This document shows, one piece after another, positions 40,877 to 43,468 of a DNA stretch of 64,000 nt. The notes beneath the pieces were generated by a model that saw only the letters and a program-made list of their open reading frames with translations, did not search any database and was not told where the DNA came from. The DNA is from Promethearchaeia archaeon (lineage in GTDB: Archaea; Asgardarchaeota; Lokiarchaeia; Sigyniarchaeales; SOKP01), in NCBI GenBank assembly GCA_029856145.1, contig JAHQWK010000004.1, positions 64,001-128,000 of the forward strand, read 5' to 3'. A program made the translations under genes and the position numbers. Position 1 is the first letter of the stretch. The number at the start of each line of letters is the position of its first letter.

Positions 40877-43468
40877 TCAAGAACCTATTTTTTTCCAAGG
40901 TTTTCCAAAAAGTAAATAGCTAGATATTGCTAAACTACTTCGTAAATCTATATGTTTAATACCAGTATCTGAAGTCGAATCTTTAACCTGTTGTTCTACA
41001 AGTTTTTCCATTTTAGTTGCGATACATTGTTGACGTGCCTTCAGGAGTGAAACACCTTGACTGTTATTGTTGAAAAAATTCATAAAGAAATTTGAGATGA
41101 TTTGTTTTGTTTCATCATTAAAAATCGGATAATTTTTTGAAACAATTCCAGTTATCCTATTGTAATCAAATTGAGCAACGATATCTCCAAATGTCCTTAA
41201 GGTGTTCCTTAGCTTCTTACCTTCAATATCATAAACTTGGGAATTTAAAAATATCAAGGGCTGATTTTTTGAATTGTTCTGACTTAGTATATGATTAATT
41301 TCATTAAAAGTTAAAATTTGATTATCATTTGTAAGGAAAAAACTATTTTTGGGGCTCCATTTTGAGTAAAAAATATTTCCAACAAATACTATGATATGGT
41401 ACATGTCAGTTGATAAATTTGATAAAATATTTTCCCGTGTTGAATTGGCTCCTAATAAAGTAGCCATTTGGTTAATTTCATTTCTTTGATTAAAGAAATT
41501 TATTATATAATTCAATTCCTCTGCTCCAGCTTGAAATGGATAAATTAATTCTTTCTGTTTGGTTTTTTCATTCCATTTTACAGGACTTTTAGAATTAATT
41601 TATTCAATTACTAAAACATTATATACTTTATTAGATGCCTCAGTTAAAGGTTCCTTGGGCACTTCATCCTCAAAAGCAACACCACCAAGTGGGGCCTCAC
41701 CTATTTTGTATGCACTTGAATATTTTAATAAGAAAAAATTATTATCATAAATAAGATCGAAAGGTATTGTCATGCTATCTAATATAAAATAAAATTGAGG
41801 TATTTGATTCAAACTTTCGATCTTAAATGACTTAAAAAAATCTCTAATTAATTTTGGCAGAAAAAAATATAATAATTCACCAAACTCTTTCAGATTGAAA
41901 TGGTATTTCCGATATTCCGATTCATAGAAAAGTTCATTATAAATTTCAATTAGTTGAGAATCATTCCAGAATTCATCAACAATTGTTCCTTGAATTATTT
42001 AATTTTTAACTGAAATTATTCTATAGGAAATCATCCCATAAGAATTGATTCTTAGAATTATCTGCTTTATGCTAAAGTCTTTGTGAAATAATTGCTTTTG
42101 ATTGTTTTCATCGTTAAAAGTATATATCTCTTTTTTCATAGATTCTGTTTCAGTATATAATACCCTCAGATCTGTTATTTTTATACTAAAATCCTTATCT
42201 AAATATAGAAGTATTTTTTGTGCAATGTTATAATTTTGTTCCTCAAATAGAGCACGATAAAACATCATTCTCCAAAAATCTTTCTGTTCTAAAGAAAAGA
42301 ACATAGACTTAAATTGCCAAAGGATATTGCATGTGTAAAAATAATGAAAGAGTTGGGTATTTGTTTGAGGTAATTTTAAGTGATTGCTTAGTTTTTCTAA
42401 TGATTGAAGTAAAAATTTCTTTTCTTTCATATCCACAAATTTTTTACAGGCTTCAACCCATAATTCAATTAGAATGTTATCATAGGATAAATCAGTTTTA
42501 TACATAAATAAATCTTCTAAGAAATCATATATCTCATACGCAATTTCAAAACGATTTCTATTAATTGAAAAATCGATAAATTTTCTAATATAGGTGACAG
42601 CATCACCAAATGATTGGTACTCTTGAATTTTAAAGAATATATTGCGAATAAAGATAATAATCCACGAATATTCACTTATATCATTTAAATAATAAATCAA
42701 TTCTTCAAGATCAACCAAAATAGTATTAAAACTTCTTTCATTAATTGAAATTCTACTGATACTGCTAAATTCGTTTTTTAAATAACCTGGAAGTCTGTTT
42801 ATTAAAATTTTATTGATTATACGTACAAATTCGGCAGAATCTTCCATTAATTTATACTTTAAACAAACATTCTCTAATAGTATATAAATAAATAATGCTC
42901 GTTTGCTTGGTTCTATGTCAAATATCGTTTTACTTATACTCTGCATACTCAAATGGAAATATTCTGAAGGCACTACTGATTTTCTTAAAAAGATTTGTAA
43001 TATCTGTAATTCAAATAATCTCTGAAAATCATCTCTTTCATGCAACTTTGCTGAAAAAGAATTAATGAATTTAGTTATTCCTATTTGGGATAAGTCCTCC
43101 ATTTTTATAAATTCTTGTAGAAGATTAGTGCAGAAATTATTAAATAAATAAAAATCATCTAATTTAGATAAAAATGAAAAAAATCTTTTATACGCGTCAA
43201 TATATCTGATTAAATCAATCTCAACTTTTCCATCCTTATGTTTAATTAATGAATTTAAATACATCCACCAAGAATTAGAAATAATCATAATTAACTGATG
43301 CTTTTTCTGAATATCAAGCCAATCATTCTTCGCTATTTCAAAACTTAGATCATCTAATAATTTTGATGCCCATAAATGATTAGCAGCATATAACAGCTTT
43401 CGAGCTGTTATAATTTTGTTTTGGAAATTAGTTAAAAATTCTTTTTTCAAATCCGTACTAACAGACAT
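40877..43468 (-). pseudogene. Helical-repeat plus degenerate CHAT (caspase-like) domain protein, 863 codons with two in-frame TAA
   Basis: ORFs 41999-43468, 41600-41812 and 40877-41515 share one frame, and the sequence between them translates without other stops. CHAT-like motifs IPFDLIYD..F, VLVI, ATREN-like STREN, GVSLLKAR and YLLFGKP. Confidence 0.8.

Follow-up and report, generated by a model that had tools for sequence, protein, structure and literature searches.

The joining of a helical region to a caspase-like module in one chain is the described architecture of separase (PMC11506125), and a protein of related build, DdvA, has been reported to combine an H862/C907 dyad with a membrane anchor and a place in a defence island (PMC11506125). 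Protease folds that have lost their activity are also on record, iRhom and CspC being described as pseudoproteases (PMC6451368, PMC6636752). The actin-related proteins (ARPs) of Asgard archaea are known only as transcribed genes with no assigned role; Candidatus Lokiarchaeum ossiferum has four actin homologues, of which the three ARPs are transcribed below Lokiactin (PMC9834061). Here we analyse a gene from a 64,000-nt stretch of a metagenome-assembled genome (MAG) of a Promethearchaeia archaeon (positions 64,001 to 128,000 of contig JAHQWK010000004.1, assembly GCA_029856145.1; “the window” below means this whole stretch), which lies directly downstream of an ARP gene and encodes a long helical N-terminus followed by a CHAT-like domain in which both catalytic residues are replaced. 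We refer to it as pseudo-CHAT. The reading that we favour, at a probability of roughly 0.6, is that pseudo-CHAT is a cytosolic pseudo-protease under purifying selection, forming with the ARP a two-gene cassette of one Asgard order and probably a non-catalytic complex, and that the copy in the window is likely a null allele. Literature searches pairing Asgard with CHAT domains, with separase and with ARP partners returned no description of this family.

Read along the minus strand from 43468 to 40877, the gene forms one frame without frameshifts, and translation through the stops, as the preliminary description had advised, gives 863 codons with two TAA among them. Searching with this read-through protein (X at the stops) retrieved more than 100 uninterrupted orthologs of about 860 aa, all from Promethearchaeota/Lokiarchaeia MAGs. 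Existing annotation obscures the family: NCBI splits the gene on the source contig into calls of 489 and 196 aa, and nearly all orthologs are labelled “hypothetical protein”, with a single UniRef entry reading “CHAT domain-containing”. In the source genome, a 3.55-Mb MAG that is 97% complete, pseudo-CHAT is present as a single copy.

An AlphaFold2 model built on an alignment of 39 sequences (mean predicted local distance difference test score 78, predicted template modelling score 0.69) bears out the two-part layout originally proposed, with 24 helices over residues 5-447 and then an alpha/beta CHAT module of about 15 strands, in which residues 571-612 form a disordered loop. Pfam CHAT (PF12770) scores 24.6 bits on the last piece of the window protein, at a cut-off of 24, and matches 17 of the 39 orthologs at E<=0.01. 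Chance does not account for the CHAT assignment. When a profile of the 39 orthologs was run against 1.84 billion representatives, it recovered full-length relatives with identities as low as about 20% and also reached genuine CHAT proteins (E 4e-11 to 1e-3), themselves scoring 105-154 bits with Pfam CHAT, and hhalign aligns the family’s C-terminus with eleven canonical CHAT domains at 99.8% probability (E 2e-28, 261 columns). Since the family profile found nothing relevant among the sequences of solved structures (one eS24 match, E 0.076), it is modelling that establishes the fold. The structure search that had been suggested against CHAT, Csx29 and separase gave full-length Foldseek matches, with Csx29 (the TPR-CHAT protein of Craspase) first and DdvA, separase and SAVED-CHAT after it; VIA-align superimposes the C-terminal domain on SAVED-CHAT 8tl0_C with Z 15.5 (root-mean-square deviation 3.3 Å, 188 residues) and residues ~601-863 on metacaspases and caspases with Z 11-12.6. 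On this model the protein is TPR-CHAT-like in layout, solenoid and CHAT domain standing in one chain, and its C-terminal domain has the caspase-hemoglobinase fold, the term “TPR-like” resting on structure only, with no Pfam TPR match in the window pieces or the family members examined. As a side observation, residues 751-834 of two of the 39 orthologs (P0088 and P0091) give a sub-threshold Pfam TOR1L1_C match (27 bits, cut-off 27.8). This domain comes from the C-terminus of TORTIFOLIA1, which is a microtubule-associated protein of plants.

The preliminary description had read IVFVGNIF and IFLNSQ where CHAT proteases carry their catalytic His and Cys motifs, and both strings occur in the translated frame (YHIIVFVGNIFYS and QPLIFLNSQVYD). 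In the hhalign alignment FVGN pairs with yAGH and FLNSQ with fLNAC, so that Asn698 takes the place of the catalytic His and Gln744 that of the catalytic Cys, confirming that both residues are replaced. Across the 39 orthologs (mean column identity 75%) N698, N742 and Q744 are invariant and G697 nearly so, and no His or Cys is invariant or near-invariant anywhere in residues 520-863. The 18 deeper full-length relatives have N, Y, S, T or V at the His site and Q, R, K or L at the Cys site, and the orthologs from two closed genomes and from family f31 have N or I at the former and H, R or K at the latter; no family member among these carries the His-Cys dyad. Judged from its sequence, a protein with Asn and Gln in place of the dyad cannot carry out cysteine-protease chemistry, and we file the gene as pseudo-CHAT and not as a protease because it fails on catalysis despite CHAT homology and a TPR-CHAT layout. 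All of the solved TPR-CHAT proteins matched here (Csx29, DdvA and separase) keep the dyad. The family thus offers a clean case of a TPR-CHAT protein retained, over well over 100 species’ worth of divergence, without either catalytic residue.

Selection on the gene is nonetheless evident in the ratio of non-synonymous to synonymous divergence (dN/dS, Nei-Gojobori), which is 0.065-0.092 overall, 0.03-0.08 in the solenoid and 0.09-0.14 in the dead core; with dS near saturation these values are rough, and they place pseudo-CHAT under strong purifying selection. One might ask whether such a protein nevertheless retains enzymatic activity, through a non-canonical nucleophile or by some other chemistry at the former active site, as the best-conserved part of the C-terminal domain is made up of the former-site loops (G697, N698, F700, S702, P706, P737, N742, Q744, G750 and K752). 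We consider this very unlikely: besides the want of any conserved Cys or His in residues 520-863, neither S702 nor S743 is conserved among deeper relatives, whose two sites range over N/Y/S/T/V/I and Q/R/K/L/H. From clan CD peptidase enzymology, Asn and Gln cannot stand in for the thiolate-imidazolium pair. An active caspase-fold paralog was not found in the source genome either, Pfam CHAT and Peptidase_C14 being without a match, although the six-frame CHAT screen missed even the pseudo-CHAT gene, whose match is too weak for that screen.

The second line of evidence concerns the ARP gene. Its stop and the pseudo-CHAT start are separated by exactly the 18 nt first reported, and over 129 loci this gap runs from -22 to 63 nt (median 24), against 69-415 nt before PLD174, the next gene downstream. 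Wherever a contig extends sufficiently far, the ARP gene is directly upstream of pseudo-CHAT, of which a scan with one genome per species found 80 loci. Both genes range over three families (f1, f31 and f2) of one Asgard order, the Lokiarchaeum/Promethearchaeum lineage: the family profile finds full-length pseudo-CHAT genes in 117 of 134 f1 genomes, in the one f31 genome and in 7 of 14 f2 genomes, and the ARP clade (E<=1e-35) appears in 110/134, 1/1 and 7/14 of these, with the same genus pattern and at coordinates that abut the pseudo-CHAT matches. A further 250 genomes from the phylum yield no member of the ARP clade, and in them the same profile search finds no full-length pseudo-CHAT, five of the genomes giving weak matches only, to canonical CHAT proteins of their own. 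Two closed genomes carry the cassette.

Gene order adds to this picture to a differing degree in the three families. Family f1 has a collinear array of YjeF, gelsolin-like, roadblock, VWA, ACT, cc287, ARP, pseudo-CHAT, PLD-like, methyltransferase and DEAD helicase genes, and because this long-range synteny takes in housekeeping genes (YjeF and the DEAD-box helicase), adjacency in f1 alone proves little. Families f2 and f31, whose outer flanks differ and whose proteins match those of the window at 22-43% identity, still preserve the core order cc287-ARP-pseudoCHAT-PLD174. Absences are informative in the f2 genera g10 and g11 (G213, G089 and G165, the first a closed genome on a single 4.36-Mb contig), where the locus reads 813-280-cc-PLD-405 with both cassette genes missing and only ~118 nt between the cc and PLD genes. 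These genomes have three and not four actin-family matches, no ARP ortholog elsewhere, and a PLD ortholog; given that the cassette is present in f1 and f31, its absence here is more simply read as a joint loss within f2. Nowhere in the contiguous loci examined is either ARP or pseudo-CHAT intact without the other. In distribution, location and losses, as far as genome sequences can tell, the two genes behave as one unit. Five near-complete f1 genomes without either gene were also considered as cases of co-loss and rejected, since three also lack PLD174 and two have the PLD gene at a contig end, which marks these absences as assembly gaps. In genome G129 (L118; G129:C20:11000-15800) the ARP gene and the first 655 codons of pseudo-CHAT are deleted, and an open frame of 208 aa, which spans the caspase-like core, survives as a decayed remnant between a cc287 remnant and the PLD-like gene.

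The ARP is a member of the actin family by a full-length match, Pfam Actin spanning residues 9-376 and solved actins scoring ~128 bits, and it is the most divergent of the four actin-family genes in the source genome. Its identical sequence occurs on 8 contigs. The nucleotide pocket of the ARP has changed: its phosphate-2 loop is altered from DxGDG to N/S-x-G-E-x in 89 of 95 orthologs, the first Asp being N or S in 89/95 and the second Glu in 91/95, so the ARP and pseudo-CHAT pair may be largely structural. Of the 95 orthologs, 84 retain the phosphate-1 Asp, which is Asn in the source species.

Comparative genomics, through adjacency, phyletic range and joint absence, thus lends backing to the initial proposal of a pseudo-protease scaffold partnering an ARP, the partnership itself being something that we still infer. 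Several observations weigh against it. Asn and Gln are invariant in the core family only, and as the Cys position of deeper relatives is occupied by R, K, L or H, no single new site chemistry is conserved; most of the apparent f1 absences are assembly gaps and uninformative; no ARP-CHAT fusion appears among the matches of the ortholog search or of the profile search of 1.84 billion representatives; the co-transcription of the two genes is inferred from spacer length alone; and the ARP is intact in the source genome while its partner is broken, which means that it can persist without that partner at least briefly. In a mirror-tree comparison, pseudo-CHAT shows its strongest residual rate correlation with PLD174 (0.60), the value for the ARP being only 0.30. 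This result favours the view that the ARP and pseudo-CHAT genes stand together for historical reasons only, pseudo-CHAT acting alone or with cc287 and PLD174 and never binding the ARP, and the constant position of the cassette between cc287 and PLD174 and the reach of f1 synteny into housekeeping genes speak the same way. We nevertheless regard a purely historical linkage as unlikely: cc287 and PLD174 persist, adjacent to one another, where the cassette is absent, whereas the two cassette genes are never found intact apart, and the gap between these two is tiny or overlapping compared with that before PLD174.

The condition of the gene in the window requires separate treatment. Its stops had been mentioned in the preliminary description, without consideration of what they mean for this copy, namely a gene interrupted twice relative to intact orthologs and with no second copy. 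The second stop, at codon 623, falls in the first strand of the caspase-like core in the AlphaFold2 model. Intact conspecific alleles are close at hand: P0124 has E490 and S623 and is otherwise identical to the window protein, over the remaining 861 residues, and 7/7 full-length members of the 90%-identity cluster are intact. With two nonsense differences, no missense difference and an unchanged dN/dS, the window copy does not look like an old pseudogene. A full-length protein cannot be made from the source MAG as written, and we think that the two TAA codons probably represent a real and very recent null allele.

The competing explanation, that the stops are artefacts of assembly, polishing or strain mixing and that the organism makes the full 863-aa protein, is in our view the less probable of the two but deserves serious weight. 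An otherwise identical intact protein, P0124, is found in public assemblies, and constraint on the window copy is not relaxed, its dN/dS against relatives falling in the same overall range as between intact copies. Both changes (GAA to TAA and TCA to TAA) are G:C to T:A. Oxidative damage artefacts also produce changes of this kind. Nonsense changes make up 6.2% of the possible substitutions in the gene (14.7% for G>T/C>A), and the chance that both of the two sole protein-changing differences would be nonsense is ~0.006 under uniform substitution or 0.026 with G>T/C>A only. In favour of a real null allele, the stops are present in the deposited record and NCBI-side gene calls split there; two consensus errors within 400 nt that both create stops would likewise be very unlikely; and no consensus error is seen across ~2,900 codons of seven neighbouring genes. 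Once a first stop had arisen, moreover, further nonsense downstream would be neutral, with a 6-15% chance per hit. A conspecific 2,242-bp ENA contig from the same 90% cluster carries the gene as two open reading frames (ORFs; P0132 and P0130, residues 251-550 and 553-863), with E490 and S623 intact and an independent break at codon 551/552, and this separate break also counts against artefact. Metagenome contigs scanned for the exact pattern around codon 490 gave no match, a protein-guided scan that excluded near-identical records gave no locus closer than 86% identity, and same-frame ORF pairs, of which there are 122 genome-wide, did not discriminate as a proxy for stop errors.

That the stops are instead read through, recoded or spliced out, a possibility raised by their both being in frame, is one to which we give almost no credence. 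There is no insert: the frame is exactly 863 codons long and matches the orthologs residue for residue, each TAA replacing one codon, and in the lack of extra sequence at the stops splicing or recoding is excluded in practice. TAA also ends 33 of the 43 long frames in the window, more than any other terminator, and each stop has A as its next base. We know of no archaeal recoding of TAA.

Elsewhere in the family interruptions are rarer than a first inspection suggests, most internal-stop flags in other genomes being the natural terminator or a contig end. The genuine oddities are a frameshift in G328, decayed remnants in G129 and G180, and a truncation at residue 784 in G343. Contig breaks inside or beside the gene were observed in many family MAGs (G138, G267, G113, G121, G099 and G374), and these may reflect strain-level variation at the locus.

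Taken together, the favoured reading suggests the following course. The cassette would have arisen in one Asgard order and been gained, kept and lost as a unit; co-transcription of its two genes would deliver the products in fixed proportion, as components of a stoichiometric non-catalytic complex. The solenoid, or the conserved dead substrate groove lined by the former-site residues listed above, or both, would hold the ARP or a partner peptide, by analogy with Csx29 held by Cas7-11 and with separase holding securin, the pseudosubstrate that binds in the separase groove. Pseudo-CHAT would thereby control the action of the ARP in the Asgard actin system. In the source MAG, if the stops are real, the first lies just past the solenoid, and a 489-aa helical protein could still be made from the null allele, at most this N-terminal part. 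A more specific version, which we put forward tentatively and hold at somewhat less than even odds, is that the pair forms a dedicated complex of the Lokiarchaeum/Promethearchaeum order in which a dead clamp of the separase/Craspase kind holds the ARP and controls either how the ARP assembles or how it acts on Lokiactin filaments. If true, bacteria and eukaryotes would have nothing that corresponds to this type of actin-family regulator, and pseudo-CHAT would be the first partner assigned to any Asgard ARP, and cultured strains appear to carry the cassette. Having its origin, its location and its losses in common with one ARP clade, pseudo-CHAT is in any case a concrete candidate partner for that clade, which opens the role of the ARP to experiment.

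Table 1. Features of the pseudo-CHAT locus, in window coordinates
Feature	Position	Strand	Details and basis
Pseudo-CHAT gene, whole frame	40877..43468	minus	863 codons + TGA, interrupted by 2 TAA codons
N-terminal alpha-solenoid (TPR-like), codons 1-447	42128..43468	minus	24 helices; AlphaFold2 and full-length Foldseek
CHAT-like module, codons ~467-863	40880..42070	minus	15 predicted strands; Pfam CHAT/hhalign match from ~codon 528
Caspase-hemoglobinase-fold core, codons 614-863	40880..41629	minus	VIA-align, model range 601/614..863
First premature stop, codon 490 TAA	41999..42001	minus	GAA/Glu in intact conspecific alleles; translation and ortholog alignment
Second premature stop, codon 623 TAA	41600..41602	minus	TCA/Ser in intact conspecific alleles; translation and alignment
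Asn698 (AAT) at CHAT catalytic His position	41375..41377	minus	hhalign; invariant in 39 orthologs
Gln744 (CAA) at CHAT catalytic Cys position	41237..41239	minus	hhalign; invariant in 39 orthologs
Spacer, ARP stop (TAG) to pseudo-CHAT ATG	43469..43486	minus	18 nt
Divergent ARP, upstream partner gene	43487..44683	minus	398 aa; Pfam Actin 150.7 bits
cc287, conserved upstream neighbour	44742..45605	minus	Polybasic N-terminus, disordered linker, C-terminal helical domain
PLD174, conserved downstream neighbour	40238..40762	minus	174 aa; coiled coil + PLD-like domain, Asn for HKD His

Of the genes that flank the cassette, cc287 and PLD174 are older neighbours that may belong to the same assembly (Table 1). 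ESM Atlas gave nothing specific for cc287, and for PLD174 a PLD-like lead alone. The HKD histidine of PLD174 reads Asn (NVKF...), making this a second apparent pseudo-enzyme. Further upstream and in the same orientation lie a roadblock/LC7 gene and a weak gelsolin-repeat gene (48741-50124, minus), collinear in f1 and not in f2. Downstream there is a gene for a 727-aa Eco57I/type IIG-like adenine methyltransferase (37951-40134, minus), whose position is conserved throughout f1 and beside which no evident nuclease partner was found.

Many prokaryotic CHAT proteins act in defence (Craspase, SAVED-CHAT, the DdvA island), and the cassette could by the same token be an anti-virus defence or mobile module: its nearest solved structures all come from defence systems, the type IIG-like methyltransferase gene is two genes downstream, and contig breaks and null alleles at the locus hint that it varies within populations. 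We nonetheless consider a defence role unlikely and would assign it very little weight. No PADLOC model matches pseudo-CHAT, the ARP, cc287 or PLD174; the gene is single-copy at one fixed position and follows species groupings, as under vertical inheritance, with a dN/dS of ~0.08; the protease is dead, with no CRISPR-Cas, SAVED or cyclase gene nearby; and in f2 the methyltransferase gene is not beside the cassette.

Set beside the described systems, pseudo-CHAT resembles each in part. At domain level its best structural match is SAVED-CHAT (8tl0_C), and relative to canonical CHAT domains (PF12770), which read HxxGH...LNAC with His and Cys, it reads FVGN...LNSQ and scores at the Pfam cut-off. 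DdvA has the same TPR-CHAT architecture and superimposes with VIA-align Z 13.5-13.6 across residues 240-855, but pseudo-CHAT is without its dyad, membrane anchor or defence-island context. Separase (Peptidase C50; 9hma, 5mz6, 5u1s and 7nj0) likewise joins a helical N-terminus to a caspase-like C-terminus and matches at full length in Foldseek (E 3e-5 to 2e-3), yet it is eukaryotic, much larger, catalytically active and without a link to the actin family. The resemblance is architectural only: Pfam C50 (PF03568) matched neither four family members at E<=1 nor the window pieces at E<=0.1, an active dyad is missing, and the narrow range within one order argues against the family being a separase ancestor. 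Among pseudoproteases, cFLIP, iRhom and CspC offer an analogy and no more, as unrelated lineages in which a dead protease fold is retained as a binding or regulatory module. cFLIP is a pseudo-caspase that acts by pairing with an active paralog, whereas the source genome yielded no active caspase-fold paralog.

The closest of these systems is Csx29 (PDB 8eey_B, 7zoq_A and 8eex_B), the protease subunit of the type III-E Craspase, which also consists of a TPR-like solenoid and a CHAT module. It provides the best full-length Foldseek matches to the pseudo-CHAT model (E 9e-8 to 1e-6) and a VIA-align Z of 11.6 over 402 residues covering both domains. Csx29 keeps its His-Cys dyad and is an RNA-activated protease beside Cas7-11, whereas the pseudo-CHAT family has Asn and Gln and no CRISPR context: its neighbours are cc287, ARP, PLD-like, methyltransferase, ACT-domain, VWA, roadblock and gelsolin-like genes, none of them the Cas7-11/gRAMP or Csx30/Csx31 genes of a type III-E locus, and no PADLOC match was obtained. 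Sequence identity between the two is ~10%, and the invariable neighbour of pseudo-CHAT is an ARP. Csx29 functions as a subunit that is clamped onto a partner, and in this it nonetheless resembles the role that we propose for pseudo-CHAT.

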